DNA from: Dehalococcoidia bacterium
GTDB lineage: Bacteria; Chloroflexota; Dehalococcoidia; GIF9; UBA5629
Assembly (NCBI GenBank): GCA_034429715.1
Contig: DAOUFR010000058.1
Location: 7,811 to 71,810, forward strand
Direction: 5' to 3'
Length of the DNA: 64,000 bases
Shown here: positions 932 to 40,243 of the stretch, in pieces
Position numbering within the stretch: the stretch's first letter is position 1
How the letters are laid out: every line of letters starts with the position of its first letter
The notes under the pieces: model-generated
Database searches by the model: none
What the model was told of the DNA's origin: nothing
What the model saw: only the letters and a program-made list of their open reading frames with translations
Position numbers and translations under genes: made by a program

Positions 932-937
932 GCATGA

Positions 938-7642: not shown

Positions 7643-7727
7643 GACTCACGATTTAATAGCGGATTACAGATACGAAGCAGCTTAATAATATTATAACCCA
7701 AAACATTGGTAAAAGGAGGATAAATCA

Positions 7728-14917: not shown

Positions 14918-15709
14918 ATCCCGGCTTTTCAGCCGCTCCCGGGCCAGCTCACAGGCGGCCGGGGAGACATCGATGCCGATCCATCGGCGGCCCAGCTTGT
15001 GAGCGGCGGCCAGGGCTGTGCCGCTTCCGCAAAAGGCGTCCAGCACGATATCCCCCTGATTGCTGCCGGCGGAGACTATTCTTTCGAGCAGGGCCAGCGG
15101 CTTCTGTGTAGGATAGTCCAGTCGCTCGCGGCTGGTCCTGCCCACCATGTTTATCTCCCAATAATCTTTCATACCTACCTGCGTATACCAGCCGGCCTCA
15201 TCCCGGTACTCAGCCACGCCCTGGAACCTGTAGGGCTTGAGCCCGCGGTTGTACGATTTCTCCTTCAGCCCGTTGAAAACATAATCGCCGGTCTTGGAAT
15301 AGAAGAGGATGATATCGTGCTTGCGCGAGAAGCGCCTGCGCGGGCTGGCTCCTCCCGACCTGTAGCACCAAACTATTTCGTTCTGAAAATTGCTGTAGCC
15401 GAATAAATCGGGGCCGTCCAGCAGCACCTTGACGTAATGCGACGCATGCCAGTCACAGTGATAGTAGAAGCTGCCCGTCGGCTTTAAAACGCGGTGCAGT
15501 TCTTTAATTCGTGGTTTCATATAATCAAGATAGGCGTTCACACCATCGAACCTGTCTTCAAAGCGCCTGTCGCCGGTGGTCTTGGGGGAGGTACTGTAGT
15601 TGCGGTTGGAATTGAAGGGCGGGTCGATATAGATCAGGTCGACGCTTTGCGAAGCTATATCCCTCAGCTTCACCAGGCAGTCGCCGCAGTAGATAATGCC
15701 GGTCTTCAC
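14912..15709 (-). CDS. beta-class (N6-adenine or N4-cytosine) DNA methyltransferase, orphan
   Basis: DPPF (motif IV) sits near the N-terminus and FCGSGTALAAA (motif I) near the C-terminus. I find no adjacent restriction endonuclease candidate. The 3' end overlaps the GDPD gene by 6 nt, convergently. Confidence 0.75.
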   Translation of the reverse strand: MKTGIIYCGDCLVKLRDIASQSVDLIYIDPPFNSNRNYSTSPKTTGDRRFEDRFDGVNAYLDYMKPRIKELHRVLKPTGSFYYHCDWHASHYVKVLLDGPDLFGYSNFQNEIVWCYRSGGASPRRRFSRKHDIILFYSKTGDYVFNGLKEKSYNRGLKPYRFQGVAEYRDEAGWYTQVGMKDYWEINMVGRTSRERLDYPTQKPLALLERIVSAGSNQGDIVLDAFCGSGTALAAAHKLGRRWIGIDVSPAACELARERLKSRDL

Positions 15710-19671: not shown

Positions 19672-19702
19672 CGTTTGACTCTGTGTGATACAAATTATGC
19701 AT

Positions 19703-21331
19703 ATGCGGAATACAGCGGTCCGGCTCTTGATACTGCCGGTTGTTTTCATATCAGCGATGCTGTGCGGCTGCGGCAGCCCCGCGATCGTGGGTTCACTGGT
19801 GAAGGTGCAGGCCGACAATGCTGTCGTCAACGGCGTAATCATCGATCAGGCCGGCTATATAGCTACCGGCAGCGGCGCGCTGGGCGACTCCACCTCTCTA
19901 TCTGTTGAGCTCAAGCCCGGGCAGAGCTACGAGGGCCGTTTGGTCTGCAGGGACAGTGAGAGGGACCTGGCCCTGCTTAAAATAGAGGCGCCTGAGCTCA
20001 AGTCGGCTTTACCGGGAGATTCGGACCTTGTGCACCAATGGGATGAGGTGACTGTGTGGGGATTCAAGCCCGGCGATGCCGCTCCGATAGAGTCAAAGGG
20101 CAGCGTGACTTCATTGCCCAAAGACGAGCAGATTACCTATTTACAGACCAACGCAGCCCTGGACCCATCGCTGGCGGGAAGCGCCGTATTGAACAAGGCG
20201 GGCGAGATGGTCGGCATGGTTTCATGGAATGCCGACCAGCCGGGTCGCGAAGGGTTCGCGCTGACATCCAACGAGATACAAAGAGTGCTGGATCAGGCCG
20301 GGGAAGCGGAATCCAACCCGCTTGCCGTCGCTTCGGTCGATTCTCCTTCGGTCTTCAGCGATCGCGCGGTGATATCCTGGCAGACCAACCGGCCGGCAAC
20401 CGGCCAGGTTGAGTTCGGATTAAAAGGCTCTTACGGTAACAAGACAGCGCTGGACGCGACCATGCTGAACACACATGCGGCCGTGCTGCAGGGATTGGTA
20501 CCTAAAACGGCCTATTATTTCCGGGTGCTTTCCGTCGACTGTTGCGGCAATGCTGTGGCTTCAAAGGGATATACGCTCACGACCACAGCGGCCGGCGCCC
20601 AGGCGGGCGAGTTCACGATCTCGAATGTTGACGTATACGATATTACCAGCACAGCCGCTTCGGTGAGATGGATTACCAGCAAACCGGCTACGGGCGTCGT
20701 CAACTACACTGCGGATAAAGAAACCGAATCCGACAGCGAAATGGACAATAGCTTTGTGTACGAACATAAATTCAGGTTGAACGGCCTGTATCCTCAGACG
20801 CGCTACAGCGTGGCCATCAAGTCCGAAACTGATTTCGATGAGTCTGCGCAACAGACGTTGAATCCTTTCACGACACCGCCGACCTCCCCTGTTTGCTGCA
20901 AGATGAATTGCAAGATACTGGATTTCTCTTTTAAAACTCTCCAGGGCGATGATTTTACAAACAAAGACATCGCGGGAAAGAAGGTATTTATTGTTTTCAC
21001 CAAGACCACCTGCCCGAACTGCATGAAGCAGGCTCTTTTCCTCAACGACGTCTATCGCGACTGGCCGAAGGGGACCGATATGATGATGTTCATGGTGGCC
21101 AGCAGCGAGAAGCAAGCTGATGTCGAGGAGTGGATCAAGAAATACGGACTGGTCATGCCCGTTTATATAGATCCGACTGCGAAGCTGGTCAGCGGGTGCC
21201 AGTTCAGGACCATCCCCACGGCGCTCTTCCTGGATACGGGATCGGTCATAAGGGATTATAAGAGCGGCGGATTCGGTAATAGAAAGGATATGGAAGCTGC
21301 CCTGAAGTATTTTTATGAACAAGAGCGATAG
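19703..21331 (+). CDS. lipoprotein with an HtrA/trypsin-like domain (apparently catalytically dead), 2 x FN3 domains and a C-terminal TlpA-like thioredoxin domain
   Basis: A lipobox (AMLCGC) is present. The trypsin-like region aligns to HtrA with the catalytic His replaced by Gly (YIATGSGAL) and the catalytic Ser by Ala (DPSLAGSAV), while the Asp is kept (RDLALLKI). Two FN3/PAP-N-like repeats (VISWQTNRPATGQVEFG..., ASVRWITSKPATGVVNY...) follow. The redoxin domain carries CPNC. Confidence 0.6.
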   Translation: MRNTAVRLLILPVVFISAMLCGCGSPAIVGSLVKVQADNAVVNGVIIDQAGYIATGSGALGDSTSLSVELKPGQSYEGRLVCRDSERDLALLKIEAPELKSALPGDSDLVHQWDEVTVWGFKPGDAAPIESKGSVTSLPKDEQITYLQTNAALDPSLAGSAVLNKAGEMVGMVSWNADQPGREGFALTSNEIQRVLDQAGEAESNPLAVASVDSPSVFSDRAVISWQTNRPATGQVEFGLKGSYGNKTALDATMLNTHAAVLQGLVPKTAYYFRVLSVDCCGNAVASKGYTLTTTAAGAQAGEFTISNVDVYDITSTAASVRWITSKPATGVVNYTADKETESDSEMDNSFVYEHKFRLNGLYPQTRYSVAIKSETDFDESAQQTLNPFTTPPTSPVCCKMNCKILDFSFKTLQGDDFTNKDIAGKKVFIVFTKTTCPNCMKQALFLNDVYRDWPKGTDMMMFMVASSEKQADVEEWIKKYGLVMPVYIDPTAKLVSGCQFRTIPTALFLDTGSVIRDYKSGGFGNRKDMEAALKYFYEQER

Positions 21332-21395: not shown

Positions 21396-23147
21396 TTAAG
21401 ACCTGAACACGAAGCTGAGAGCGCCTGCGAGATCGATAGTGTCACCATCTTTAATCGCCTGCCTGCCTGTGCCCTTGATGGAGGACCCGTTCAGCCTGGT
21501 GCCGTTGGTGCTGCCACGGTCCTCGATGTAATACTGGCCGTTTTCATAGGAGACTGTGACATGTTGCCTGGATATAAGGTCTGCCTTATCCGGGGAAACC
21601 ATGTGCTGGAAGTCCCTTCGTCCCAGCGGCGCGTCACCCGCCAGCGAAAGTTCGCTTCCGTTGGAGGCAACGAATTTGGCCGCTGGACCGACGGGTACCG
21701 GCGAGGTTTTGGGAGAGCCTGTTGCCGGCAGAGTGGCTACGGGTGAAGTGACAGCAGGCATCGTGCCGGAGCGCCCGCCGCCGTAATGAACGGCCTGCGC
21801 AGCAGGTTTCCTCAGCAGAAGGATGACTATGATTATGGCGGCTGCGGCCAGCAGCGCAACGAGCAGGATATAGGGTAGCCACCATGACAGCGTGCCATTA
21901 CTGCTGCCGGCGGTGCTGACCGGGTCGGTGGCGGTGGAGGCGGCTTCGGTTGTGCCGCTATAGGTGCCGCCGGTGTAATAGGTGCTGCCGACATAGGGCG
22001 CCACCGTTACCGTGGTGCTGGCCACCCCCGAGCCTGCGCTGTTCGACGCGGTAAGTGTATAAGTGGTCGTGTAGGCGGGAGTTACAACGTACACTCCCGT
22101 ATTGGGCACCGAGCCAACCGAAGGCGATATGCTGACATTAGCCGTGTTGTTGACCGTCCATGACAGTGTGGATGATTGCCCCGGCTGGATATAGCTGGGA
22201 TTGGCCGTGAACGAGCTGATCACAGGCGCATAGACCGGAGAAGGTGTGGACGGCACCACCACGACAGGATAGCTACGATAGTAAGGTGTTACCCATGAGT
22301 TGGAGTACCACCGGTACCCGTAGGGATAGTATGGTGCAAAGGGATTATACGGATTGTATGGTGGCCTGTGTGGTGGCGGTGGCCCAGGGGGCGGCGGCCC
22401 GGGAGGCGGTGGCCCGGGAGGCGGTGGCCCGGGAGGTGGCGGCCCAGGAGGTGGTGGTCCTGGAGGAGGAGGCAATGGTGGAGGTGGAGGAGGTGGCATC
22501 GGCGGAGCAGGGAAAGAGTCCGGTCCCGGCACCGATATCGGTGGATGGACTTGGACTGTAATTGGCGATGAAGGTGGCAGAGGGGGTGGCGGGAGCGCAT
22601 CACCCGCAGGTGGTTCAGCCTGGGCGACCTGAATAGGCGGCTGAAGCTCCTCAGACACCTGTTCTGAAGAGGTAATAGCAGGGTCTTCAATTGCAGAATC
22701 CTGCGATGGGACGATAGGCTCGGAACCGGTTGCAACCGTGGTCTCGATCACCGGTTCAGGCAAAGGTGGAGGTGGTGGTGCGACCAACTCGGTAGTGGAC
22801 GCAACCGTGGTCTCGACCACCGGCGCGGGCGGCTCAGGAGTAGATGTAACCGTAGTCTCGACCACCGGAGCTACCGGATCAGGTGCAGACGCAACCGTGG
22901 TCTCGACCACCGGAGCTACCGGCTCGGGTGCAGATGCAACCGTGGTCTCTGCTACCGGCGCGGGTGGCTCAGGAGTAGATGTGATCGTGGCCTCTTCCAC
23001 AACAGCCGGGGTGGTTGTCTCTGTGGCTATGGAAGTTTCCGATGGCGCCGGTGCATCGTCCGCAGAGGCAGGTATCAGCGGCAGCATTAAGACAGAGCAG
23101 ACAAGAAGCGCTGCCGCCAGGAACTGAACAATTTTTTTAGCAGTCAT
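21396..23147 (-). CDS. membrane-anchored FHA-domain protein with a repetitive Pro-rich ectodomain, an Ig/PKD-like domain, one TM helix and a C-terminal cytoplasmic FHA domain (583 aa)
   Basis: A signal peptide is followed by about five copies of the 15-aa repeat ETTVASAPEPVAPVV, then (PPPGP)x6, a Tyr/Trp-rich segment and an Ig-like domain. The TM helix is LPYILLVALLAAAAIIIVILLL. The FHA motif is GRR...ISRQH...GSTNGTRLNG. A GAGGAGG RBS is present. Confidence 0.75.
   Translation of the reverse strand: MTAKKIVQFLAAALLVCSVLMLPLIPASADDAPAPSETSIATETTTPAVVEEATITSTPEPPAPVAETTVASAPEPVAPVVETTVASAPDPVAPVVETTVTSTPEPPAPVVETTVASTTELVAPPPPPLPEPVIETTVATGSEPIVPSQDSAIEDPAITSSEQVSEELQPPIQVAQAEPPAGDALPPPPLPPSSPITVQVHPPISVPGPDSFPAPPMPPPPPPPLPPPPGPPPPGPPPPGPPPPGPPPPGPPPPGPPPPHRPPYNPYNPFAPYYPYGYRWYSNSWVTPYYRSYPVVVVPSTPSPVYAPVISSFTANPSYIQPGQSSTLSWTVNNTANVSISPSVGSVPNTGVYVVTPAYTTTYTLTASNSAGSGVASTTVTVAPYVGSTYYTGGTYSGTTEAASTATDPVSTAGSSNGTLSWWLPYILLVALLAAAAIIIVILLLRKPAAQAVHYGGGRSGTMPAVTSPVATLPATGSPKTSPVPVGPAAKFVASNGSELSLAGDAPLGRRDFQHMVSPDKADLISRQHVTVSYENGQYYIEDRGSTNGTRLNGSSIKGTGRQAIKDGDTIDLAGALSFVFRS
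22381..22470. repeat. 6 x 15-bp tandem repeat (GGCCCGGGAGGCGGT) encoding PPPGP repeats on the minus strand
   Basis: The repeat units are directly visible in sequence. Confidence 0.8.
22738..23025. repeat. about 6 x 45-bp tandem repeat (four near-perfect copies at 22801-22980) encoding 15-aa ectodomain repeats
   Basis: The unit gcaaccgtggtctcgaccaccgg[a/c]gc... recurs at 45-nt period and is in-frame coding within the FHA583 gene. Confidence 0.8.
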
Positions 23148-23176
23148 TTTAACCTCCTCTTTGATTACGATGATTA

Positions 23177-24724
23177 CTATATTTTAAAGGTGATACTCAA
23201 TTTATCGGCCAGCTCAATGACATCGCCGTCCACGAGGGGTTGTTTGCCGCTGTCGCGGATCTCCGAACCGTTGAGCCTGGTGCCGTTTGTGCTGCCGGGA
23301 TCCTCGACGTAGTATTTTCCGTCCTCATACCATACGTTGATGTGCTGCCTTGAGATGAACGATGCTCTGTCCGACGGCAGCAGTTTTTCAAAGTCCTGGC
23401 GTCCGAGCGTCCTGGTATTGCCGGCCAGCAGCATCTCCCCGCCGTCGGGCATGATAAGTTTGGCGGGAGGAGCTTCTGTGATGGATGTGGACGCCCCCGA
23501 TGTGCCCGCAGTCGATGTAGCGGCGCTGGATGTAGCGGTACCCGCGCTTGCAGCCGATGTACGTGGCGACTTGGGAGAGCGGGGCTTTTTCACCATCATA
23601 ACGACTATTATTATGGCGGCTATAGCCAGCAGCGCCAGAAGTCCGTAAAGAAGGTAGAAGGGTTGCTCGACGGTGACGGTAACGGCTGCCGTCTGCGTCG
23701 TGCCGTCGATATAAGTGGCGGTGAGGCTATATGTAGTCGTTTGATTGGGCGCTACCATCGCTGTGCCCACGGCATCGAAATTACCCAGCCCGTCGATGTA
23801 TACCTGTAAGGCGGCGGGAGCGTTCCATGAAAGCGTGGTGGACTGTCCGGACTGTATGGTGGGTTGCTGCACGCTCAACGCAGGCGGCACCCTCGGTATA
23901 ACGTTAATGGTGGCGGAAGACGTCACCGTGCTTCCCGAGCTGCCCGTAGCCGACAGTGTGTAAGTGGTGGTCGCGCCGGGTGTGACAGTTGTCGATCCGG
24001 ATGTCCCCACCGTACCTATGCCGGGTGATATGATAACGCTGCTGGCGTTGCTCGTGGTCCAGGTCAGTGTGACGGTTTGTCCGACGTCTATAGACGATGC
24101 ATTTGCGCTGAAAGAATTGATCACGGGTTGATAGATCGGCCTGGGCGACGGCCCGCTGTAAGGTGAAATGCTGCCGCGTGCGTAATTGAAGCTCAGAGTA
24201 CGCTCCGACCAGGAGAAGCCGGAGTTGTACCACATCTTCCAGACATAGAGCCCGTCGGGATCCCATGACTCAGCACTGAACGGCCCGATGCGCCATACGC
24301 CCGCGTAAGGCCTGTACCATCTGTAACACAGCCAGTGCCCGTAGGGCGTGGTCCCTGACGGATAGTATTCCCACAGGTAGAAGTACCCCGGGCCGTTAAA
24401 GGAAACAAGCAGGTAGCACAGGTCGTTACGATAAAGATTGTAGAGCGTTTGCCCGTAGCTGGTTACCAGGTAGGCGTTTACGATGGACCCTGCTGCTCCT
24501 GCCGGAGGGGATGGCGGCACCGTCATCTGAAGGCTGGGCCAGGTCTGGTTGTAAGTGTCAACACCGACCGGCGGCTCGACCATTTCCCCGCCTTCGTCCG
24601 GCGGCTGCCAGCTTTCATCGGGATTAATTGGCGGTGATGGCTGTGCCTGAGCCGGCGAAAATACTGCAGCTGCGGCTGATAAAACCATGCACGCGATCAG
24701 CAGCGGTAAAACTATCTTTTTCAT
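23177..24724 (-). CDS. membrane-anchored FHA-domain protein with the Tyr/Trp-rich ectodomain and two Ig-like domains (515 aa)
   Basis: A signal peptide is followed by the shared motif block (YFYLWEYYPSG...WLCYRWYRPYAGVWRIGPF). Two Ig/PKD-like domains follow (PVINSFSANASSIDVGQTVTLTWTT..., PALSVQQPTIQSGQSTTLSW...). The TM helix is LLALLAIAAIIIVVMMV, and the FHA domain is C-terminal. Confidence 0.75.
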   Translation of the reverse strand: MKKIVLPLLIACMVLSAAAAVFSPAQAQPSPPINPDESWQPPDEGGEMVEPPVGVDTYNQTWPSLQMTVPPSPPAGAAGSIVNAYLVTSYGQTLYNLYRNDLCYLLVSFNGPGYFYLWEYYPSGTTPYGHWLCYRWYRPYAGVWRIGPFSAESWDPDGLYVWKMWYNSGFSWSERTLSFNYARGSISPYSGPSPRPIYQPVINSFSANASSIDVGQTVTLTWTTSNASSVIISPGIGTVGTSGSTTVTPGATTTYTLSATGSSGSTVTSSATINVIPRVPPALSVQQPTIQSGQSTTLSWNAPAALQVYIDGLGNFDAVGTAMVAPNQTTTYSLTATYIDGTTQTAAVTVTVEQPFYLLYGLLALLAIAAIIIVVMMVKKPRSPKSPRTSAASAGTATSSAATSTAGTSGASTSITEAPPAKLIMPDGGEMLLAGNTRTLGRQDFEKLLPSDRASFISRQHINVWYEDGKYYVEDPGSTNGTRLNGSEIRDSGKQPLVDGDVIELADKLSITFKI

Positions 24725-24891
24725 ATCTATAAAGCACCTCCAGGTGATCGTGTATCTTTATTAAGTATAAGGGCACATTACACCCTCTGCTTGACCCTGG
24801 CCTGACAGGTTCCTGACAAACACCTGATAAAAAGGCGGATGCTCGGATTGAACCAGGTACCGGGCAGGGCCCTCATGAGGAAATAAAGAGG

Positions 24892-26004
24892 TTAATGGTT
24901 GGATCGGAACTTCAGACTGGCCTTGCCGGCCATCTCGATAACGTCCCCGTCTTTCAATTCCAGTGGGCCTGAGTCACGAATACTGGCAGCATTGACGGCA
25001 GTGCCGTTGGCGCTGCCCATGTCTTCGATGAAAGCCTTCCCGTCTGTGAAGCTGATCTTAAAGTGCTGCTTTGATATCATCCCCAGCTCATCCAGTCCCA
25101 GCGACCTGGCGACCTGGGCGCGTCCGATTATCTCGCTTTCTTCACCCAGGCGAATCTTCAATCCGTTGGGTAATTCCAGGACGGCCCTGGCTGTGCCGTG
25201 CAGCGGCGCTTTTGGTGTAATACCCGGATGCTCGAGCAATTCCACCAGCGGCTGCTGCGTCATATTCCGGGCGTAATTCTGTTCGCGCAGGCGGCGTCGC
25301 CCATACAGTGCCAGGAGCACAATGACGACTATGGCGGAAGGGGCAATCAGCAGGAAAAGGGGATTGGTTATAAATTTCAGCAGGTTGTTGTCCGCTGTGT
25401 CAGGCTGTTCAGGTGTCGAGGGGGTGGCTGGCTGAGCCGGCTCTTCCGTGCCCTTGACATAGTTCCAGAAGACAAGGTGGCTTCTCTGCGCTTCGCTGCT
25501 GCCTGCCGCCCATTGTCCGTTTCCGTAAAAGAAGAGCCTGTAGATATGCTGGCCCTCCAGCTCGTCCTCGCCCGGCCGGAACGGCCCGAACCTCCATCGT
25601 CCCTGCTCTTTCAACTGCCATTTGTAGGCAATCCATCTGCCCTGGTCATATCTGTCCGACGGATAGTATTCATATATATACAACCAGCCCGGCATATTGA
25701 CATCGACATCGAGGTACCATTGCTCGTCGCCCGTGAAGGTGTCGCCGCCTTCGGCGGATATCCCATGTATGGTCGCAACCAGATCAGGCGATTCGCCTGA
25801 AGGCAGTGCAGTAGTGCTGTGCAATATGAAATTAACGGGCGGCTTAATCTCATTATGCTGGGTATCATCCATGGGATCCGGTATGGTGAAGTTGTCGGTA
25901 GGCGCCCCCATGGCATACGCGCATACATGTGTGAGGGCTACTGCGCTGAGGGAAGCGAACAGGACGGCCAGCGCAAATATCAATGCCGGTACCGGCCGTT
26001 TCAC
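24892..26004 (-). CDS. membrane-anchored FHA-domain protein with the Tyr/Trp-rich ectodomain (370 aa)
   Basis: A signal peptide is followed by the shared block (WLYIYEYYPSD...WIAYKWQLKEQGRWRFGPF). The TM helix is LFLLIAPSAIVVIVLLALY, and the FHA domain is C-terminal. The GTG start overlaps the kinase stop (GTGA). Confidence 0.75.
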   Translation of the reverse strand: MKRPVPALIFALAVLFASLSAVALTHVCAYAMGAPTDNFTIPDPMDDTQHNEIKPPVNFILHSTTALPSGESPDLVATIHGISAEGGDTFTGDEQWYLDVDVNMPGWLYIYEYYPSDRYDQGRWIAYKWQLKEQGRWRFGPFRPGEDELEGQHIYRLFFYGNGQWAAGSSEAQRSHLVFWNYVKGTEEPAQPATPSTPEQPDTADNNLLKFITNPLFLLIAPSAIVVIVLLALYGRRRLREQNYARNMTQQPLVELLEHPGITPKAPLHGTARAVLELPNGLKIRLGEESEIIGRAQVARSLGLDELGMISKQHFKISFTDGKAFIEDMGSANGTAVNAASIRDSGPLELKDGDVIEMAGKASLKFRSNH

Positions 26005-27017
26005 TTAGATACCCCCACTTCTTTCACCTCGCATTCGTTTGCAGACAGAAGTGCTGACCGCATGGCCGTGGCGCTGGCAAATCTGCTGCCCGGTGAAAAC
26101 ATAATGGCCTGGGCCAGGCAGCGTGATGTCCTTGCCGAGATACCCGCCGAGATCATGTAGTCCGCCACCTTGCCGGCCTCGGTGTAGCTCCGCGGCCAGT
26201 TGGTGCGGATCAGCTCGGTGCACAGATCGTTGGGCTGTCTGAGCGTGAGCAGGTAGATACAGGTCTGCGCCAGGCCGCACAGGTCGCAACGCTGGTCGCT
26301 CTCGCCGCCTATGAATAATTCAGGTATATCGAAACCCTTGTTGGCTATCTGGGTGAAGGGATCCGTCTTGACCGTGTCCCTTTTCATGCTCTCCAGGCTT
26401 TTGGCCGTGCCGAAGTCGATCAGTTTGATGCCGCCGTTTCCGCTGAGCATGATGTTCTTGGGATTGACGTCCCTGTGCACAATACCCGCGGCGTGGATAT
26501 AGGCCAGGGCGTCCAGCGCCTGTCCGGCCCAGGCCAGGAGCTTCTGCTCACCGGCCGATGTCCTGGGAGAGGACGACATGACAGGTTCACCTGTTACGAG
26601 CTCCAGTACCAGGTGGAATTCCCCTTTGTAATAGAAATCATCAAGGTATGTGACTATATTGGGATGCTGCAGCCTTTTGAGGAAAGCGGCTTCCTGGCGT
26701 AGCTTGTCCAGATAAACATTGTCCATGGTGGTGCCCCTGCGGGGCGTCTTGATGATGCATTTCTTACCGCTGGTGCGGTCCCTGGCCAGCCAGATGTTTG
26801 CCATGCCTCCTTGTTTGAAGGCCGGTGCTTTAAGCTCGTAGCGGCTGTTGATGCGGTGCTTGCGTTCAGGCTGGGCCTGCTGTTGCGTCGGCCTGCCCTG
26901 GCGCCGGGCTGAGGCGTTCGCCTTGTGCCGCTGGACCGCCTGGATAATAGCCACTGTGACCGGTATGCTGGTGAAGATCAGTGCAAAGACTATGACAAAG
27001 ATGGTCGGATCGTCCAT
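26001..27017 (-). CDS. Ser/Thr protein kinase (Hanks-type, atypical motifs) with an N-terminal TM helix
   Basis: Subdomain motifs are present: ANIWLARD...KCIIK (Lys), HRDVNPKNIM (catalytic loop) and DFGTAK. The N-terminal TM helix is IFVIVFALIFTSIPVTVAIIQAV. The ATG overlaps the PP2C stop by 1 nt (TGATG). The track ORF is extended spuriously upstream. Confidence 0.8.
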   Translation of the reverse strand: MDDPTIFVIVFALIFTSIPVTVAIIQAVQRHKANASARRQGRPTQQQAQPERKHRINSRYELKAPAFKQGGMANIWLARDRTSGKKCIIKTPRRGTTMDNVYLDKLRQEAAFLKRLQHPNIVTYLDDFYYKGEFHLVLELVTGEPVMSSSPRTSAGEQKLLAWAGQALDALAYIHAAGIVHRDVNPKNIMLSGNGGIKLIDFGTAKSLESMKRDTVKTDPFTQIANKGFDIPELFIGGESDQRCDLCGLAQTCIYLLTLRQPNDLCTELIRTNWPRSYTEAGKVADYMISAGISARTSRCLAQAIMFSPGSRFASATAMRSALLSANECEVKEVGVSK

Positions 27018-27820
27018 CAGACTGTTTTTACCCCCGTCTTTGCCGACACCAGTGCCTGCCAGGAGGGGAGGCCGCCGGGTTGGGCGATGATAACCGATAT
27101 GTTGTCGGGGCCGCCGGCCAGGTTGGCCCGGGAGATCAGGTCCGCGCAGGCCTGCCGCGGACTCTGCGAGGCAAGCACCGTTTCCTCGATTCTGCCAGCA
27201 GGGAGCACCCCGCACAGGCCGTCCGAGCACAGCAATATGTTGTCCCCGGCATAAAGCTTGATTTGTATCAGGTCCGGCAGGCTATTATCATTGTAACCCA
27301 GCACGCGTGTTATCTCGTTGCGGCGCGGATGTGTCAGGGCTTCCTCCGCCGATATATCACCGGTATCTACCAGCTCCTGCACCACGGAATGGTCCGTTGT
27401 GACCTGAATGATCTCCCTGGTGTTGATAATGTAACAGCGGGAATCCCCTATGTGGGCAACGTACATATCCTGCCCTGTAATAAGGGCCGCGGTGAGAGTG
27501 GTGCCCATACCCTGCAGCGACTTTTCTGTTGCAGCTTCGAGGACGGCGTTGTTAGCCTTGCTGAAAGCCGAGGCCATCAGCGGCAATCCGGGCGCCGTCT
27601 GCCGAGCCAGCAGTCCGGAGATACATTCGACCTGGAAAATCCTGATAGCCAGGTCGCTGGCGATTTCCCCTGCTTCGTGTCCGCCCATGCCGTCCGCCAC
27701 CGCGAACAGACCGGCAGATACCGTACCTGAATTAGTATGCAGGTCGAAGGTGCTGTAGAAAACACTGTCTTCGTTGAGTTTTCTCACCAGGCCGGTGTCC
27801 CAGCCGTAACCTATCTCCAA
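27017..27820 (-). CDS. PP2C-family Ser/Thr protein phosphatase
   Basis: Metal-binding motifs are present (NEDS, FAVADGMGGHEAGEIAS, DG...D). An AAGGAG RBS precedes the TTG start. Confidence 0.85.
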   Translation of the reverse strand: MEIGYGWDTGLVRKLNEDSVFYSTFDLHTNSGTVSAGLFAVADGMGGHEAGEIASDLAIRIFQVECISGLLARQTAPGLPLMASAFSKANNAVLEAATEKSLQGMGTTLTAALITGQDMYVAHIGDSRCYIINTREIIQVTTDHSVVQELVDTGDISAEEALTHPRRNEITRVLGYNDNSLPDLIQIKLYAGDNILLCSDGLCGVLPAGRIEETVLASQSPRQACADLISRANLAGGPDNISVIIAQPGGLPSWQALVSAKTGVKTV

Positions 27821-27842
27821 TCAAATCTCCTTCATTTGCATA

Positions 27843-28334
27843 TTAGCTCAACCGGAAGATGAGTGTGGCTCCCGGCTGTCTGGCCAGCTCTATACTATCT
27901 CCGTCCCTGAGAGCCTGCCTGCCTTTATGGTGGATATCGATATTGTTTACCCGTGTGTGATTGGTGCTTCCGGTGCCGTCGCGCCCGTGGTCCTGGACAA
28001 AATAAGTGCCGTTCTCGCGCGTAACGAGCAGATGCTGTCTGGAGATGCTCATCAGCGCATCTTGCGAGAGTTTGCCCTCGAAGTTACTGCGCTGAATGAA
28101 CTGGGAATTGTCCGCCAGAGTGATCTCCTCGCCTCCCGGCATGATCATCCTGGCCACGGCTCCCTGCGCTGCAGCTTCCGCAGCCTCTTCCATGACGGTG
28201 TCGTTGCTTGTACATTCCTTTTCGTCCGCCAGGTAATGCCCGCAGCTGTAACAGAAAAAGCTGCCGGCCCCGTTCAAGCCCTGGCAGGCCGGGCAGATGA
28301 CGCTGACGCTGATTACCTCTTCCATTACGATCAC
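27843..28334 (-). CDS. zinc-ribbon + FHA domain protein (163 aa), first gene of the kinase/phosphatase operon
   Basis: The N-terminus carries CPACQG...CYSCGH (4-Cys zinc ribbon), and the C-terminus an FHA domain (SRQHLLV...GSTNHTRVNN). Confidence 0.7.
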   Translation of the reverse strand: MIVMEEVISVSVICPACQGLNGAGSFFCYSCGHYLADEKECTSNDTVMEEAAEAAAQGAVARMIMPGGEEITLADNSQFIQRSNFEGKLSQDALMSISRQHLLVTRENGTYFVQDHGRDGTGSTNHTRVNNIDIHHKGRQALRDGDSIELARQPGATLIFRLS

Positions 28335-28364
28335 ATCATTCTAGTCTGCTGAAAAACCGACTGC

Positions 28365-28393
28365 TTGACAGCTTTCTGACGAATACCTAATAT
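28365..28393 (+). promoter_or_regulatory. sigma70-like promoter (TTGACA-17-TAATAT) for the FHA/winged-helix regulator gene
   Basis: TTGACA sits at 28365-28370 and TAATAT at 28388-28393, in a divergent intergenic region shared with the kinase operon. Confidence 0.45.
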
Positions 28394-28483
28394 AAATCTG
28401 ACATATATATTCAATGTGATGGTTGCCCTTGATATATTATACTGCAAGAGGAAATACAGCCTGCATATAGCAGGAGGCCCGTT

Positions 28484-29167
28484 GTGGCTTTTATTATAGT
28501 CAAGAAAGGCGATGCCGAAGACATCGGCAAGATTTTTACCCTCAGGCAGGCTGCCACGGTAGTCGGCCGGCGTACTCCCCAGTATAAGCCGGATATCGAA
28601 TTAAACGACGAGGCGGTATCCAGACGGCATTGCGAGATACTGGAAAAAGAAGGCCATTATCAGATAAGAGACCTGGGCAGCACGAACGGGACCGTGCTCA
28701 ACGACGACAGGATACTGTCGGGCAGGTTATATGACCTGAAACACAATTGCAAGATCGGGCTTGGTATGGCAGTAGGGCCGGCGCATTCCCTTTTGATATT
28801 CAAAGAGACGGAGAGCACCAATTTACTGGGGGGAAAGGGGGCAGGAGCAAGCCAGAAAGCTGTAGCGATGGATGTTAGCTGGCTCAAAATTGATGAGGCC
28901 AAGAAAGAGGTGCATGTGGACGGCGAGCCTGTGAAACTATCGCGCAAAGAGTACGAATTACTTAGTTATCTCTACGAAAACGCCGGTGTGGTCTGCCTGC
29001 GCGACGAGATTATCAAAGCCGTATGGTTCGATAGTCTGGACCCGGCCGCCATATCGGATGCGACGCTCGACCAGCTCGTGCACCGACTGCGGGAGAAGAT
29101 AGAACCCGACACCGCCAACCCCACCCGCATTATCAGCCGCAAGGCCTTCGGATACATGCTGGTATAA
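28484..29167 (+). CDS. FHA domain fused to an OmpR/PhoB-type winged-helix DNA-binding domain (transcription factor)
   Basis: The N-terminal FHA domain is GRR...VSRRHCEI...GSTNGTVLND. The C-terminal trans_reg_C-like region is VHVDGEPVKLSRKEYELLSYLYENAGVVCLRDEI...FGYMLV. AGGAGG precedes the GTG start. Confidence 0.7.
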   Translation: MAFIIVKKGDAEDIGKIFTLRQAATVVGRRTPQYKPDIELNDEAVSRRHCEILEKEGHYQIRDLGSTNGTVLNDDRILSGRLYDLKHNCKIGLGMAVGPAHSLLIFKETESTNLLGGKGAGASQKAVAMDVSWLKIDEAKKEVHVDGEPVKLSRKEYELLSYLYENAGVVCLRDEIIKAVWFDSLDPAAISDATLDQLVHRLREKIEPDTANPTRIISRKAFGYMLV

Positions 29168-31178: not shown

Positions 31179-32429
31179 CTAAATGCCGCCCTCGATACAG
31201 TATTCCCGCAGTGTGTTAAGGGCTGCGAAAAACTCCTTCATCATGGTGCCCACCGTGTACATACCGCGCTTTGTGACTGAAATTATGCTGTTTTTCTCCT
31301 GGATAACACCGGCAATTTTAAAGAATAGCAGCTCCGCCCATATCCTGGCGTGGATATCCGAATCGAAGCGCTGTTTGAACTGCTGCGTGCTCAGGCTCAT
31401 ACCGAATAACCTGGTCAGCATGTAGTAACGGTATTGCTCGGTAGCGGAGAGATGACGTGTGCGGACTATGGGCAACCTTTCTTCCGCGATCAGCTTATGG
31501 TAGCCGTCCAGCGAGAAGGAATTGACCAGGAAATCGCCTCCCAGGAAGCTGACGGACCCGGCGCCGACGCCGATATAGTCATCGTAGTCGATGATATATT
31601 CGTCGATCATGAGGTCGCCGCGCGAAAAGCACCAGGCTGTCGAAGCTTTGTATCCGCCGTCCATCAGCTCCTGCAGGATTATCTCGTAATATTGCTTTTC
31701 GCGTTTGGTATCCACCCGGCGGAATTTTTTGGTCAGCGCATCCAGTTTATGTGGAGAGGGCATGAGCGGGTAGAAAGTGGCCTGGTCGGTGCCGAGGTCC
31801 TTGAAGATTTTTATATCGGAGCGGAACTGCTCCGGTGTCTGTGTGGGGAAGTTGAACATGAGGTCCACGTTGACCGTATCGAATTTGCCCTGCGCCAGCT
31901 TAAGCTTCTGTATGGAGTCTTCGCCCTTGAAAAGCGTCCTGCCCATGGCTTTAAGAAGGGAGTTATCGAAGCTTTGAACACCGATGGAAAGCCGGTTGAC
32001 TCCCATCTGTTTCAGCTGATCAACGGTGTCAGGCGTCAGCTCGCGCGGTGTGGTCTCAAGCGAGATGCGCCTGATCTCGAATTTCGATCTGAGGAAATCG
32101 ACGAAGCCGGACAGCTCGTCCATGAGGACGGTGGGCGTGCCGCCCCCGAAATAGAAGTCGTTGAATTTGAAACCCAGCGCGGCGTACAGGTCGACTTCCC
32201 GGCGCAGGTCTGCGAAGTAAGCGCGGGCTTGATCCTCCTTGAACAGGTAACGGTTGAAGCAGCAGAAGGGACACAGGGTGCGGCAGAAAGGGATGTGGAT
32301 ATAGAGGGATACCCTGTCCCCCCGTATAATGCCCTCTGAAGCGATGCGGGAAAGGTCCGCATCGCCTGTAAACCTGAGGAACTTCTGGCCTTCGTAGCGG
32401 ACGACCGAGCCGGCAAATAAACTGATCAT
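31179..32429 (-). CDS. radical SAM enzyme, HemN/HemW-like (oxygen-independent coproporphyrinogen-III oxidase family)
   Basis: The CxxxCxxC motif (IHIPFCRTLCPFCCF) sits in a HemN-like N-terminus, and a HemN C-terminal domain follows. Confidence 0.7.
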   Translation of the reverse strand: MISLFAGSVVRYEGQKFLRFTGDADLSRIASEGIIRGDRVSLYIHIPFCRTLCPFCCFNRYLFKEDQARAYFADLRREVDLYAALGFKFNDFYFGGGTPTVLMDELSGFVDFLRSKFEIRRISLETTPRELTPDTVDQLKQMGVNRLSIGVQSFDNSLLKAMGRTLFKGEDSIQKLKLAQGKFDTVNVDLMFNFPTQTPEQFRSDIKIFKDLGTDQATFYPLMPSPHKLDALTKKFRRVDTKREKQYYEIILQELMDGGYKASTAWCFSRGDLMIDEYIIDYDDYIGVGAGSVSFLGGDFLVNSFSLDGYHKLIAEERLPIVRTRHLSATEQYRYYMLTRLFGMSLSTQQFKQRFDSDIHARIWAELLFFKIAGVIQEKNSIISVTKRGMYTVGTMMKEFFAALNTLREYCIEGGI

Positions 32430-32480
32430 GTTTATTGAATGTGCAGCAGCTTAAAATTATCTGTGGTCGAGTTTACCAAG

Positions 32481-33089
32481 CTAAGCAAGCAATCCGTACA
32501 AAATGGTTTGAACCATTCTGTCCCCGGCAGCCGTTAAGTCGAAGCTGCCATCTTTTAAACACCATTCATACAGGATACCCCGATAACTCATCATGATAAA
32601 CCGGGTGATTTCCGTAGCGTCCGTATCGTCTTTTAGTATGCCGACTTTTAAACACTCATCTATCTGTTCAAGCACAGTATTAAACAATATGCCCCTCTCT
32701 GCTGCCATCACAGGATCTTTTCTGCCGGCGCTGATCTGACTCTGCATAACCACTTTAATAAAATCCACACCCAGATTGTCCATGTACCGGGATACAGATG
32801 CGCATAAGAATTTGAGCTTGTCGATCCGGCTATCTATTTCAGGTAGGACAGGAATTACTTCATCTCTAATTAATTTATTTATCGCCATGAAGTGCTCCAT
32901 GATAACCGCGTCTTTGGACTTGAAATGGATATAGAATGTCCCCAACGAAACGCCGGATTTTCTGCAGATCTCACTGATGGTAACCCTGTCGTATCCCTTT
33001 TTTGAGAACAGCGTAAGGGATGTCTGGTAAATCTTCTTGTGCGTAGCCAGCGACTGTTTTTTTCGATGAGTGGACTTTTTATTATTCAT
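32481..33089 (-). CDS. TetR-family transcriptional regulator
   Basis: The HTH is TLFSKKGYDRVTISEICRKSGVSLGTFYIHFKSKD. Confidence 0.75.
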   Translation of the reverse strand: MNNKKSTHRKKQSLATHKKIYQTSLTLFSKKGYDRVTISEICRKSGVSLGTFYIHFKSKDAVIMEHFMAINKLIRDEVIPVLPEIDSRIDKLKFLCASVSRYMDNLGVDFIKVVMQSQISAGRKDPVMAAERGILFNTVLEQIDECLKVGILKDDTDATEITRFIMMSYRGILYEWCLKDGSFDLTAAGDRMVQTILYGLLA

Positions 33090-33154
33090 GATAGGTACCT
33101 TCGCTATACAGTTAAACTATTATATTTGTAACTAACGTGAATTACAATTCAGGC

Positions 33155-33206
33155 TTGACAATATTTTGATAGTAGAATAGAATACATTCACTGAATATAT
33201 TCTATT
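33155..33206 (+). promoter_or_regulatory. sigma70-like promoter (TTGACA-17-TAGAAT) overlapped by the inverted repeat AATAGAATA-N13-TATTCTATT (candidate TetR operator)
   Basis: TTGACA sits at 33155-33160 and TAGAAT at 33178-33183. The inverted-repeat arms sit at 33176-33184 and 33198-33206. Confidence 0.45.
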
Positions 33207-33221
33207 ATTAGGAGGCTGTTG

Positions 33222-33974
33222 ATGGATTTGGGATTAAAAAACAAAACTGCTTTAGTTACAGGCGCCGGGAGTGGTGTGGGGCGAGAGGTAACGCGAGTGC
33301 TATGTTCAGAGGGGGCCATTGTTGCCGCTGCCGATATAGATTTGAAGAAAGCAGAGCAAACGGTTGAGTTGATGCAAGGTCTTAATGGCAGGGCGTTCGC
33401 CTATGAAATGGATGTGATCAACTGGAATAAGGTGCAGGATACCGTAGCCCTTTTTATAAAGAAAGCAGGTCATATAGATATTCTGGTCAATAATGCAGGC
33501 TATGGAGTATATAAGACCTTTGATACCACAACTTATGATGACTGGATGACCGATATCAATGTTAATCTCATCGGATCGCTGAACTGCGCAAGGGCGGTGA
33601 TTTCTCATATGTTGGAAAATAAATATGGGAAGATTGTAAATGTAGTATCCGATGCTGGAAAGACTGGTGAACGCTTTTTAGTAACTTATTCTGCGGCAAA
33701 AGCGGCCGTTATCGCTTTTGCTAAAGCGCTGGCGAAGGAAACAGGCAGGAGCAATATCAACGTCAATTGTGTTGCGCTCAGCAGTATTAAGACGCCGCTT
33801 ATTTTACCTTTTCTTACTCCGGAAGCCGAGAAGAAGATGATCAAGAGTTATCCGCTTGGTAGATTGGGGCTTCCGGAAGACCCTGCGAGTTTAATTGTGT
33901 TCCTGGCGTCCGACAGGGCGTCATGGATAACGGGGCAGGCTTTTTCGGTCAATGGCGGATATGCCATGGTTTAG
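33222..33974 (+). CDS. short-chain dehydrogenase/reductase (3-oxoacyl/3-hydroxyacyl-CoA reductase-like)
   Basis: TGAGSGVG marks the NAD(P) site and the catalytic YxxxK lies in YSAAK. Confidence 0.75.
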   Translation: MDLGLKNKTALVTGAGSGVGREVTRVLCSEGAIVAAADIDLKKAEQTVELMQGLNGRAFAYEMDVINWNKVQDTVALFIKKAGHIDILVNNAGYGVYKTFDTTTYDDWMTDINVNLIGSLNCARAVISHMLENKYGKIVNVVSDAGKTGERFLVTYSAAKAAVIAFAKALAKETGRSNINVNCVALSSIKTPLILPFLTPEAEKKMIKSYPLGRLGLPEDPASLIVFLASDRASWITGQAFSVNGGYAMV

Positions 33975-34002
33975 GCTTTCAAATAGAAGGAAGAAGGTTG
34001 TG

Positions 34003-35280
34003 ATGAAAGAAGTCTATGTCATTGGATCGTATTCAACTGTGTTCAAACGCTGGCCTGAGAAATCCGTAAAAGACCTAACAAGAATGGCTTATCTGGGAGT
34101 GCTTGAGGATATGGGGCTTGATGGTATATATCCTGAGAGTACCTGGTTCTCCAATTGCGGCTGGGGGCACACAATTCCAAGAGTGGAGGATGATCCGGGG
34201 GTGCTCGGTCAGATGAATATAAGGGGCCAGGTTGCCTTGGCACCTCTGGTGAATGAAGGATTATTTCCCAGACATATTCCGATAACAAACATTGAAAGCG
34301 CCTGTGCCAGCGGTTCGGTTGCGTTTCACGGGGCTTGGAGGGATATCCTTTCGGGAAATGTCGAAATCGCCCTTGCAATAGGTGCAGAAAAAGTATTTTT
34401 TCCGAAACAGCTGGCTAAAGTAGTGGAGTTATTCTCGGGAGGCATCGATGTTACTCGGGTGAGCGAGCTTTTCGAACAATATAAAACAGTCGGCGCCGAA
34501 TACGGAAAGGAATGGGCGGCATCTCCCGGCCATACGCTTTTTATGGATGTTTATGCCACACTGGCAGCCAGGCATATGAAGAAATTTGGTACCACGGTAG
34601 AACAGCTGGCGGTTGTTGCATCCAAGAATCATTTTCACGGCTCCCTCAATCCTCTGGCACAGTATCGGTTTGAGGTACCGGTTGAGAAGGTATTAAACGA
34701 TTATATGGTCAGCTGGCCTCTAACACGGTCCATGTGCTCACCTCTTGGAGACGGCGCTGCCGCCGCCATAGTCTGCTCCGATAAATTCTTAAGAAAGCTT
34801 CCAAGTTCGGTTAAAAAACGCGCAGTTAAAATTTTAGCCAGCGTACCGGCATCCGGATGTGAACACGCTATAGATGAGCCGTCGATAACTAACTGGGCAT
34901 CTCAAAAAGCTTACAAAATGGCAGGTATAAAAGCTGACGATGTGTGCTTTGCTGAAGTCCATGACGCTTCCTCCTTTGCTGAAGTCAATCAGCTGGAGCA
35001 ACTGGGATTTTGCCCATTGGGAACTGGGGGTACATATTCAGAAAGCGGTGCAACCAGATTTGACGGTGAAAAACCCATAAATACATCGGGTGGATTGGAA
35101 TCAAAAGGGCATCCGATCGGAGCAACCGGTCTATCTCAAATCAATGAAATCGCGATCCAATTGAGAGGAGAGGCGGGCAACAGACAGGTGCGGCGGCCCA
35201 AAATTGGTTTAGTTGAAAACGGCGGCGGCCTCATTGGCTTTGAAGAAAGCTGCTGTGTAATAACGATTTTGAGTAAGTGA
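34003..35280 (+). CDS. thiolase-like protein (SCP-x / nsLTP-type)
   Basis: It has a thiolase fold with an active-site Cys in NIESACASGS and C-terminal motifs. An RBS precedes ATG 34003. Confidence 0.7.
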   Translation: MKEVYVIGSYSTVFKRWPEKSVKDLTRMAYLGVLEDMGLDGIYPESTWFSNCGWGHTIPRVEDDPGVLGQMNIRGQVALAPLVNEGLFPRHIPITNIESACASGSVAFHGAWRDILSGNVEIALAIGAEKVFFPKQLAKVVELFSGGIDVTRVSELFEQYKTVGAEYGKEWAASPGHTLFMDVYATLAARHMKKFGTTVEQLAVVASKNHFHGSLNPLAQYRFEVPVEKVLNDYMVSWPLTRSMCSPLGDGAAAAIVCSDKFLRKLPSSVKKRAVKILASVPASGCEHAIDEPSITNWASQKAYKMAGIKADDVCFAEVHDASSFAEVNQLEQLGFCPLGTGGTYSESGATRFDGEKPINTSGGLESKGHPIGATGLSQINEIAIQLRGEAGNRQVRRPKIGLVENGGGLIGFEESCCVITILSK

Positions 35281-35303
35281 GTTATCTGAGGAGGAGAAGG
35301 AAG

Positions 35304-36860: not shown

Positions 36861-36900
36861 AAAGCAACTTATCGAGATTAGTGGTTGAAGGAGTAATAAA

Positions 36901-38052: not shown

Positions 38053-38071
38053 GTAATTACAATATATAAAT

Positions 38072-38884: not shown

Positions 38885-38989
38885 TTCCTGAGGCCATAAT
38901 ATCCAGGCCTTGTGAATCTGCCACGTGCTTTGGTGATATGGATTCCAAAAGGTGCACCATCATTTAGCTTTAATGAGGAGAACATTGTC

Positions 38990-40177: not shown

Positions 40178-40243
40178 ATGACCAGCGCATAGCCGAGCTC
40201 ATCTGAGAAATCGTACGTATTTGATCTGCATAAGCATATCAAG

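Follow-up and report, generated by a model that had tools for sequence, protein, structure and literature searches.

In a 64-kb stretch of DNA from a Dehalococcoidia bacterium (GenBank assembly GCA_034429715.1, contig DAOUFR010000058.1, positions 7,811 to 71,810 of the forward strand; hereafter the window, in whose numbering coordinates are given), we found a phospho-threonine signalling cluster of seven genes within 7.8 kb, six of them co-directional on the minus strand and one divergent on the plus strand. In order of rising coordinates, these genes encode three membrane proteins with FHA domains (FHA583, FHA515, and FHA370), a Hanks-type Ser/Thr kinase, a PP2C phosphatase, a soluble zinc-ribbon-FHA protein, and a divergent regulator that joins an FHA domain to a winged helix-turn-helix (wHTH) domain. 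Taking the evidence as a whole, we lean toward reading this locus as a self-contained, autoregulated module of Hanks-type Ser/Thr signalling that would run from the cell surface to transcription and that forms a conserved unit in Dehalococcoidia, the individual steps being less certain than the whole.

All seven open reading frames (ORFs) were found at the coordinates given below, and searches with Pfam and NCBIfam profile models upheld the domain assignments of the original prediction, i.e., five proteins with FHA domains, a Hanks kinase with a complete catalytic site, and a PP2C of the Stp1 type, with Pfam scores for FHA, Trans_reg_C, Pkinase, and PP2C all well over the curated cut-offs. All five FHA domains retain the Arg, Ser-x-x-His, and Asn residues used for phospho-threonine binding, as judged from sequences and alignments, and those of the four minus-strand FHA proteins are 37 to 53% mutually identical. 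The compact operon with TGATG and GTGA overlaps that had been proposed could be read directly in the DNA: the PP2C stop and the kinase ATG meet in TGATG at 27017 (1-nucleotide [nt] overlap), and the kinase stop and the FHA370 GTG meet in GTGA at 26004 (4-nt overlap). Both overlaps recur in the gene calls of two relatives (93%- and 64%-identical), and kinase and PP2C are predicted to be translationally coupled to FHA370. The 64-kb window encodes no further kinase, PP2C, or FHA protein, and no OmpR/PhoB-type wHTH other than that of the FHA-wHTH regulator.

The predicted output of the module is this regulator (28484..29167, plus strand; 227 amino acids [aa]). Pfam places its FHA domain at residues 25 to 94 (E = 2.7e-17) and Trans_reg_C (PF00486) at residues 147 to 226 (E = 1.9e-18; 66.7 bits vs a cut-off of 26.2); residues 1 to 100 hold the FHA domain and gave no Response_reg match in Pfam. 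In a sequence search of the PDB, the two halves matched separately, the wHTH to RegX3, WalR, and PhoB, and the FHA domain to OdhI and GarA; the best NCBIfam matches of the wHTH were likewise of PhoB type, all with scores far below the cut-offs. Alignment further showed that the recognition helix (AISDAT.DQL.HRLRE) is invariant and that T112, which lies in the linker motif FKExExT, is 100% conserved in 47 sequences. The protein has an FHA domain where an OmpR/PhoB response regulator has its receiver domain. Its likeness to that family lies in the wHTH, nearest to those of PhoB, RegX3, and WalR, and in candidate operators of Pho-box layout, whereas receiver domain, phospho-Asp, and histidine kinase are absent from the cluster, and an FHA domain plus a linker Thr stand at the input position, so that regulation would proceed through Ser/Thr phosphorylation.

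A Hanks kinase leading to a transcription factor that combines FHA with an OmpR-type winged helix (Trans_reg_C) is also the theme of EmbR/PknH; in Mycobacterium tuberculosis, the FHA domain of EmbR mediates its PknH-dependent phosphorylation, which raises promoter binding (PMC6213207). The two regulators differ in architecture, with EmbR being a wHTH-BTAD-FHA protein of the SARP family that carries its FHA domain C-terminally, whereas the cluster regulator is arranged FHA-linker-wHTH and has no BTAD match. The similarity between them is marginal (E = 2.4e-4) and confined to the FHA part, and the cluster regulator, unlike EmbR, is encoded beside the kinase and phosphatase presumed to act on it, with Pho-box-like candidate operators of its own. 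By analogy with GarA, the conserved Thr near the FHA domain could form an intramolecular switch of phospho-Thr and FHA. However, GarA and OdhI, the closest relatives of this FHA domain in sequence, regulate enzymes and have no DNA-binding domain, and their phospho-Thr motif lies N-terminal of the FHA domain, whereas that of the regulator would be C-terminal, in the linker.

Two spacers of the cluster carry arrays of phased repeats. A predicted promoter/operator (28338..28403), identified by conservation and a promoter scan, lies between the zinc-ribbon-FHA gene and the regulator, and a 43-nt block in this divergent region, TTGCTTGACAGCTTTCTGACGAATACCTAATATAAATCTGACA (28362-28404), is nearly invariant in 51 non-redundant loci whose proteins there are only ~60% identical. 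Read in the sense of the minus-strand operon, the block contains TGTCAG (28403-28398), CGTCAG (28381-28376), and TGTCAA (28370-28365) at 22- and 11-bp spacing, with 20 nt following GTCAAG before a -10-like TAGAAT (28343-28338). The second predicted promoter/operator (24764..24829, minus strand), which emerged from the sequence and a 36-locus alignment, is internal to the operon and upstream of FHA515. Here four hexamers, TATCAG (24829-24824), TGTCAG (24818-24813), TGTCAG (24807-24802), and GGTCAA (24796-24791), follow each other with an exact 11-bp period (in operon sense, TATCAG-N5-TGTCAG-N5-TGTCAG-N5-GGTCAA), and GTCAAG is again separated by 20 nt from a -10-like element, TATACT (24769-24764). 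Both arrays have the identical GTCAAG-20 nt-(-10) layout and lack a -35 consensus. A minus-strand sigma-70 consensus promoter was sought in the divergent region and none was found, which fits, without proving, activator-dependent promoters.

A Pho box is defined by 7 conserved and 4 variable nt that repeat head-to-tail and stand in place of the -35 element, with the core CTGTCAT in E. coli (PMC4415409); the repeat unit of the cluster, also with 7 conserved and 4 variable nt and with the core CTGTCAG, matches this definition. The phased pair is kept in 48 of 53 divergent regions and in 36 of 39 internal regions. Within the 64-kb window (both strands), it occurs three times, always within the two cluster spacers, and 1.78 Mb of related loci (both strands counted) yielded nine other matches, most of which, by their coordinates, are the same two spacers in cases where the region boundaries or the neighbour-gene match had failed. 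In the window, the phased repeats stand at the two cluster spacers alone, and they point to the PhoB-like FHA-wHTH protein as an autoregulator. The repeats at both predicted promoters, together with the sole wHTH of the window, also lend indirect support to the earlier proposal that the output of the island is a DNA-binding FHA protein.

The same repeats could be read otherwise, i.e., as binding sites of another OmpR-family regulator (PhoB or PhoP), in which case the cluster would belong to, for example, a phosphate-starvation regulon, and the FHA-wHTH protein would control other targets. By sequence alone, the repeat core and its 11-bp architecture are almost identical to the Pho boxes of E. 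coli, with their CTGTCAT core (PMC4415409). Nevertheless, we regard this explanation as distinctly improbable: the sites occupy the regulator's own divergent promoter and the only other promoter of the cluster, and are all but absent from the rest of 1.78 Mb of related loci; the wHTH encoded in the cluster, the sole one in the window, is also PhoB-like; and the species in which the recognition helix hardly varies are those in which the operator hardly varies.

Other elements lie within or close to the divergent region. On the plus strand, the promoter scan returned a sigma-70 promoter, TTGACA-17-TAATAT (28365-28393), that faces the regulator gene, and this 29-nt pattern occurs once in the window versus 0 times in shuffled sequence. 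A second conserved motif, ATATATTATACTGCAA (28432..28447, plus strand), is kept in position and sequence in most of the 51 loci; it contains TATACT (28438-28443), stands at a constant 46 to 48 nt upstream of the regulator start, and could be a second -10 element or the binding site of another protein. In the window, as in close relatives, the ribosome-binding site of the regulator gene (GGAGG) overlaps with a hairpin, CCTGC-ATATA-GCAGG (28460-28474). Metagenomes were also scanned for TGTCAG hexamers in three phased copies, and the result was set aside: of the 120 loci returned, 4 had the cluster, with the match in the cluster's own spacers, and the others were chance or repeat matches that are uninformative on a regulon.

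The original prediction had proposed a gene-neighbourhood search for co-occurrence, and this search recovered the same seven genes in the same order in ~50 species-level Dehalococcoidia metagenome-assembled genomes (MAGs). More specifically, tblastn with all seven proteins showed order and orientation to be kept in essentially all loci of sufficient length; what flanks the seven genes changes from clade to clade, so that they behave as a module. Relatives of the regulator number several hundred, mostly of 227 aa, the best 120 listed being 61 to 93% identical to it; those with a named organism usually come from Dehalococcoidia or Chloroflexi/Chloroflexota, and the closest (L001) is 93% identical. 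In a scan of one genome per species, the regulator was found in ~50 uncultured Dehalococcoidia MAGs and no cultured organism was among the confirmed matches, the scan being pattern-based, so that absence elsewhere is not proven. Across ~50 species, the cluster is syntenic and vertically conserved, with purifying selection.

This conservation bears on the idea that the locus is an anti-phage or conflict system around a Ser/Thr kinase, like PD-T4-6 or Stk2. The kinase does match the PADLOC models for the PD-T4-6 and mad6 kinases, with E values down to 1e-44 (models that have no cut-offs), but these matches reflect the generic kinase fold, and no other gene of the cluster, the five FHA proteins with the regulator among them, matches a defence model. 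Moreover, the cluster shows chromosomal synteny and vertical conservation in ~50 species, its GC content is that of the surrounding 10-32 kb of the window, and no mobile-element genes flank it there. We therefore give a defence role hardly any credence.

The order of the genes is also informative where it is interrupted. In four species, the gap between FHA370 and FHA515 holds an insertion of 0.8-2.4 kb, and the internal array stays beside FHA515 despite it. In one of these loci (L041), the insert encodes, on the opposite strand, a 744-aa surface protein (4157-6391, plus strand) that lies between FHA370 and the FHA515 operator and that, judged from sequence alone, has a beta-helix-like part, a CARDB-like region, and a C-terminal transmembrane (TM) anchor; insertions at the same point were seen in L045, L047, and L051.

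The kinase (26001..27017, minus strand; 338 aa) matches Pkinase (PF00069) with E = 5.7e-30 (105 bits vs a cut-off of 31.7). It has the catalytic motifs of the family, i.e., a GxGxxx loop, the beta3 Lys (IIK), HRDVNPKN, DFG, and IPE, of which the last four are invariant in 46 orthologues, and T204 and T222 in its activation segment are invariant as well. Hydropathy and the positive-inside rule give it a lone N-terminal TM anchor (residues 6 to 24) with ~5 residues outside and the catalytic domain directly after; the protein ends with this domain and has neither an ectodomain nor a sensor domain. No PASTA domain was found in the kinase, and NF033483, the PASTA-kinase model, scored 111.7 bits against a cut-off of 450, through the kinase domain only. 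The suggestion that Thr residues of the juxtamembrane segment serve as docking sites is made less likely by the finding that this segment is not conserved and has no conserved Ser/Thr across orthologues. The conserved Thr residues of the cluster sit in the kinase activation segment and in three linkers, those of FHA515, FHA583, and the regulator.

The phosphatase (27017..27820, minus strand; 267 aa) belongs to the Stp1/IreP family, passing NCBIfam model NF033484 with 245.3 bits vs a cut-off of 230 and matching Pfam with E = 6.5e-15. Its metal-binding motifs DGMGGH, SDGL, and GGxDN are conserved, its start is a TTG with an AAGGAG ribosome-binding site, and hydropathy gave no TM helix, in keeping with a soluble protein. 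Two sets of gene calls in this part of the cluster were rejected. The kinase had been listed as a 409-aa ORF from 27230, which is an artefact: its upstream extension runs into PP2C and has no orthologue support; because orthologue calls measure 335 to 340 aa, the true kinase is the 338-aa protein (26001-27017). Long antisense ORFs, e.g., at 25198-25800 and 27080-27730 (both plus strand), overlap confirmed genes, likewise lack orthologue support, and were discarded as non-genes.

As had been proposed, three of the FHA proteins combine an ectodomain, a single TM helix, and a cytoplasmic FHA domain. Hydropathy, read together with the positive-inside rule, gives each of FHA370, FHA515, and FHA583 a signal/anchor helix and a single TM helix with basic residues after it, and the AlphaFold2 (AF2) model of FHA515 agrees. 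FHA370 (24892..26004, minus strand), predicted to be a type-I membrane protein like the other two, consists of a signal/anchor helix, a domain that we call ectodomain X (residues ~85 to 190), a TM helix (216 to 234), a linker, and an FHA domain (Pfam, 293 to 358; E = 1.3e-12). In FHA515 (23177..24724, minus strand), the signal/anchor helix is followed by ectodomain X (~80 to 182), two Ig-like domains (201 to 276 and 282 to 353), a TM helix (357 to 378), a disordered Ser/Thr/Ala linker containing T403 and T413, and the FHA domain (Pfam, 440 to 505; E = 4e-12; FHA region, 421 to 514). Its AF2 model shows three beta-sandwich domains, the TM helix, the disordered linker, and the FHA domain, with a mean pLDDT of 72.8. 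Over their full length, FHA515 orthologues share 56 to 90% identity. Domain X hardly varies among them, and the Ser/Thr/Ala-rich linker is variable except for T403 and T413, each of which is 97% conserved.

The third of these proteins, FHA583 (21396..23147, minus strand), has a signal/anchor helix (6 to 24), variable Thr/Pro-rich repeats and (PPPPG)n, one Ig-like domain (~300 to 385), a TM helix (427 to 445), a linker with T481, and a cytoplasmic FHA domain (Pfam, 508 to 573; E = 2.5e-13). T481 is 100% conserved, and the Ig-like domain shares 54% identity with that of FHA515. Orthologues range from 371 to 589 aa, with conservation confined to residues ~260 to 583, and the N-terminal part of variable length looks like an extended spacer through the envelope. 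Two in-frame tandem repeats lie in the gene, at 22375-22507 and 22801-22981; a 15-nt unit repeated six times encodes (PPPPG)n, and a 45-nt unit repeated four times encodes ETTVASAPEPVAPVV-like units. Since the ectodomains X of FHA370 and FHA515 are 25% identical (E = 6e-16), and on account of the Ig-like domains just described, FHA370, FHA515, and FHA583 form a mosaic paralogue family.

Ectodomain X is rare: a profile search of 1.84 billion proteins returned 79 representatives, always with the domain near the N-terminus. Four strong matches were checked with Pfam, and a C-terminal FHA domain was present in 4/4, while weaker matches are surface proteins with CARDB or Big arrays. Distant relatives of the domain occur, for example, in surface proteins with CARDB arrays at L085 (1647-3746) and L086 (1494-3245). 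One distant relative stands in an archaeal context, adjoined by an archaeal prepilin-peptidase-type gene and a family B DNA polymerase, and another carries a weak SlaA-like (S-layer) match; together, these two give a hint of a link between domain X and S-layer-type envelopes. A further domain-X protein is part of a separate phospho-signalling cluster on a metagenome contig (L084, 649-11888), where the genes run Pkinase, two no-match genes, a double zinc ribbon (DZR)-FHA gene, vWA-DZR, an unknown gene, FHA, PP2C, a 611-aa surface protein, a no-match gene, and a second Pkinase. The 611-aa protein combines domain X with Big/Ig arrays and a C-terminal double zinc ribbon. This ArnA/ArnB-like cluster suggests that domain X repeatedly joins modules of kinase, PP2C, FHA, and zinc-ribbon proteins.

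The membrane proteins also invite a different view of the locus, namely as a scaffold for the envelope or for division that would correspond, in Dehalococcoidia, to the actinobacterial fhaA-fhaB-pstP-pknA-pknB cluster. The TM-anchored FHA proteins would then recruit phosphorylated envelope or division proteins and organise S-layer assembly without sensing anything external, and the FHA-wHTH protein would merely set expression of the module. In the actinobacterial fhaA-fhaB(fipA)-pstP-rodA-pbpA-pknA-pknB cluster, too, FHA proteins (one of them TM-anchored), a PP2C, and a membrane Hanks kinase are co-operonic, and the TM-linker-FHA layout of FHA515 resembles that of FhaB/FipA and aligns with the FhaB/FipA model, far below the cut-off. 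Further points in favour of a scaffold are that the PP2C belongs to the Stp1/IreP family, that the module is strongly conserved, with some carrier MAG contigs of just 1.2-1.3 Mb (which would make it housekeeping-like if these are whole genomes), and that very strong constraint acts on the ectodomain of FHA515, which would suit a structural partner. Distant X relatives in archaeal surface proteins, one with a weak SlaA-like match, and the inclusion of S-layer proteins among the Foldseek matches of FHA515 fit the same view.

Against this, division, peptidoglycan, and S-layer genes are absent from the cluster and its flanks. More specifically, the claim that RodA/PBP/FtsW partners are lacking was borne out, as no RodA, FtsW, or PBP gene was found in the cluster or its flanks (in the window, L001, and L002), the flanks encoding metabolic enzymes. 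The FhaB/FipA equivalog model (NF049868; cut-off of 125 bits) was not reached by any of the FHA proteins, with the regulator at 47.6 bits being the highest and FHA515 scoring 40.8 bits. In contrast to the actinobacterial cluster, the one described here has a kinase without PASTA domains, a soluble PP2C, five FHA proteins (three of them with large Ig-like ectodomains), and a dedicated DNA-binding output; such a transcription factor, with its candidate operators, suggests a regulated rather than a constitutive function. On this evidence, a scaffold in place of a signalling route seems unlikely to us, although scaffold and sensor roles are compatible and the two readings overlap to that extent.

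The remaining minus-strand protein is the soluble zinc-ribbon-FHA protein (27843..28334, minus strand; 163 aa as called). It has an N-terminal four-Cys ribbon (CPxC...CxxC) with a weak DZR match, a variable acidic linker, and a C-terminal FHA domain (Pfam, 95 to 150; E = 4e-9), and the four Cys residues are conserved in 51 orthologues. The true start is likely the ATG at 28325, which gives a protein of 160 aa, the length of the gene call in L001. ArnA of Sulfolobus (with ArnB and the kinases ArnC/ArnD) is a Zn-finger-FHA protein that reads kinase-made phospho-sites (PMC6509490). The small soluble protein of the cluster resembles it in its four N-terminal Cys and C-terminal FHA domain, a match at the level of architecture only. 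Unlike the Arn system, the cluster has no vWA gene and no link to an archaellum, its host is a bacterium, and its phosphatase is a PP2C. FraH of Anabaena is likewise a Zn-ribbon/finger-FHA protein comparable to ArnA. Armatimonadota proteins that had appeared as 25 to 29% identical relatives of the regulator proved to be zinc-ribbon-FHA-FHA proteins that adjoin a PP2C and have no wHTH, and were dropped as evidence of a wider distribution of the regulator. One of them (L054, 9719-11461) is a 303-aa protein directly followed by the PP2C, with similar arrangements in L053, L058, and L081. The two genes form a recurrent pair in Fimbriimonadaceae MAGs, so the pairing of zinc-ribbon-FHA with PP2C extends beyond Dehalococcoidia.

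Resemblances of this kind could mean that the cluster is the control module of an appendage or secretion machine encoded elsewhere, as PpkA/PppA/Fha1/TagH are for the type VI secretion system (T6SS) and ArnA/ArnB are for the archaellum switch. Weak matches to Yop-YscD_cpl and VI_FHA/TagH were obtained, the zinc-ribbon-FHA architecture equals that of ArnA (PMC6509490), and the L084 cluster, with its distant X protein next to DZR-FHA, vWA-DZR, FHA, PP2C, and two kinases, is ArnA/ArnB-like. However, all these matches are far below the family cut-offs (TagH/VI_FHA, TIGR03354, at most 40.5 bits vs 120.25), the cluster has no vWA partner, and neither T6SS genes in the flanks nor secretion, pilus, or archaellum genes within 10 kb were found in any examined locus. 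We consider this explanation very improbable.

Every component of the cluster belongs to a familiar family and its signalling has precedents in EmbR/PknH, FhaB/FipA, and ArnA, which makes the whole an undescribed variant of a familiar theme. By analogy, it may work as a cross between EmbR/PknH and a PhoB-type response regulator, set within a cluster like fhaA-fhaB-pstP-pknAB; it belongs to none of these three. The ensemble had not been recognised as a described system, and a literature search agreed with this: no description of the cluster or of a regulator with N-terminal FHA and C-terminal wHTH was found, the searchable literature being incomplete.

If the locus is a surface-to-transcription module, its steps may be envisaged as follows. 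The kinase would autophosphorylate on its activation segment (T204 and T222), and the FHA-tailed surface proteins would dock on phospho-Thr of the kinase or of each other's linkers (T403/T413 of FHA515 and T481 of FHA583), thereby acting as detachable ectodomains, co-receptors, or scaffolds through which the condition of the cell surface bears on kinase activity. A kinase without a sensor of its own would thus obtain extracellular domains in trans, or be scaffolded at the envelope, with the zinc-ribbon-FHA protein serving as a possible soluble adaptor. Phosphorylation of the regulator on T112 by the kinase would then lead, through an FHA-phospho-Thr interaction that either dimerises two molecules or releases an intramolecular lock, to wHTH domains lying head-to-tail on the repeats. 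Binding there would activate the two sense promoters that have no -35 hexamer, as Pho boxes do for PhoB, and would block the consensus sigma-70 promoter from which, on the other strand, the regulator itself would be transcribed, and the PP2C would reset the system.

Several points weigh against this account. Each phosphorylation, docking, and DNA-binding step in it is one that we infer, and further kinases may exist elsewhere in these genomes, just as an OmpR-family regulator from elsewhere in the genome, e.g., a true PhoB, could bind the repeats. FHA515 and FHA583 are not beside the core in at least two species, and the internal array is absent where these two genes are; such cores, together with the FHA370-FHA515 insertions of four species, indicate two transcription units. 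The linkers of FHA370 and of the zinc-ribbon-FHA protein have no conserved Ser/Thr, so these two may just read phospho-sites rather than be substrates. Foldseek comparison of the FHA515 model with the PDB returned generic Ig arrays only, including S-layer proteins, and no ligand clue, and the AF2 model of the regulator (from a 13-sequence alignment) has a mean pLDDT of 47.9, too poor to judge how linker and FHA domain relate. Direction and identity of the promoters are ambiguous, as a perfect plus-strand sigma-70 promoter covers the same DNA in the divergent region and the second conserved motif could be a further -10 element.

Among the genes that flank the cluster are those for enoyl-CoA hydratases, a 3-hydroxyacyl-CoA dehydrogenase, a radical-SAM protein, and a secreted fusion of trypsin, fn3, and redoxin domains. 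The last of these (19685-21331, plus strand), convergent to FHA583, is a membrane-anchored fusion of Trypsin_2, purple-acid-phosphatase-N/fn3, and AhpC/Redoxin domains that adjoins the cluster in several clades (76 to 89% identity in L001, L006, L008, and L009; 64 to 68% in L031, L034, and L046; 40% in L038) and is not beside it in L002/L020; it may be an envelope quality-control partner. At 14912-15709 (minus strand), an N6/N4 DNA methyltransferase (PF01555) lies between glycerophosphodiester phosphodiesterase and PEMT-like genes, with no recognised restriction partner among the neighbouring ORFs examined. GC content in the window is 53 to 59% over ~10-32 kb and 40-64 kb and falls to 43 to 51% in two blocks, at 1-9200 and ~32400-40200. 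The first block holds F420-dehydrogenase-beta-like and POR-type oxidoreductase genes, a TetR gene, and two tandem HpaB-family paralogues; the second holds TetR, followed by SDR, thiolase, AMP-ligase, acyl-CoA dehydrogenase, enoyl-CoA hydratase, and family III CoA-transferase genes, and looks like an acquired acyl-CoA catabolic island because the relative L001 has a Peripla_BP_6 gene in its place.

A more ambitious version of the surface-to-transcription reading takes the cluster as a complete Ser/Thr equivalent of a two-component system with a split receptor, in which surface inputs arrive in trans, T112 drives dimerisation, and a feedback loop closes the circuit. We put this forward tentatively, as possible rather than probable. 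Were it true, FHA-wHTH proteins would be a class of response regulators that depend on Hanks kinases and have so far gone undescribed, and ectodomain X would be a new sensor or S-layer-contact domain that archaeal surface proteins share. The reach of the finding is limited by the familiarity of the families and by hosts that are uncultured. Bacterial Hanks-kinase pathways are usually diffuse, with many substrates, unknown inputs, and seldom a dedicated transcription factor, whereas here 7.8 kb encodes every step of a possible pathway, i.e., candidate receptors, kinase, phosphatase, adaptor, transcription factor, and a likely operator, all of it kept across ~50 species. The cluster may thus offer an unusually tractable model, one that could be reconstituted in vitro, for phospho-threonine reading that replaces phospho-aspartate signalling, and its domain X bears on the poorly understood cell envelope of Dehalococcoidia.

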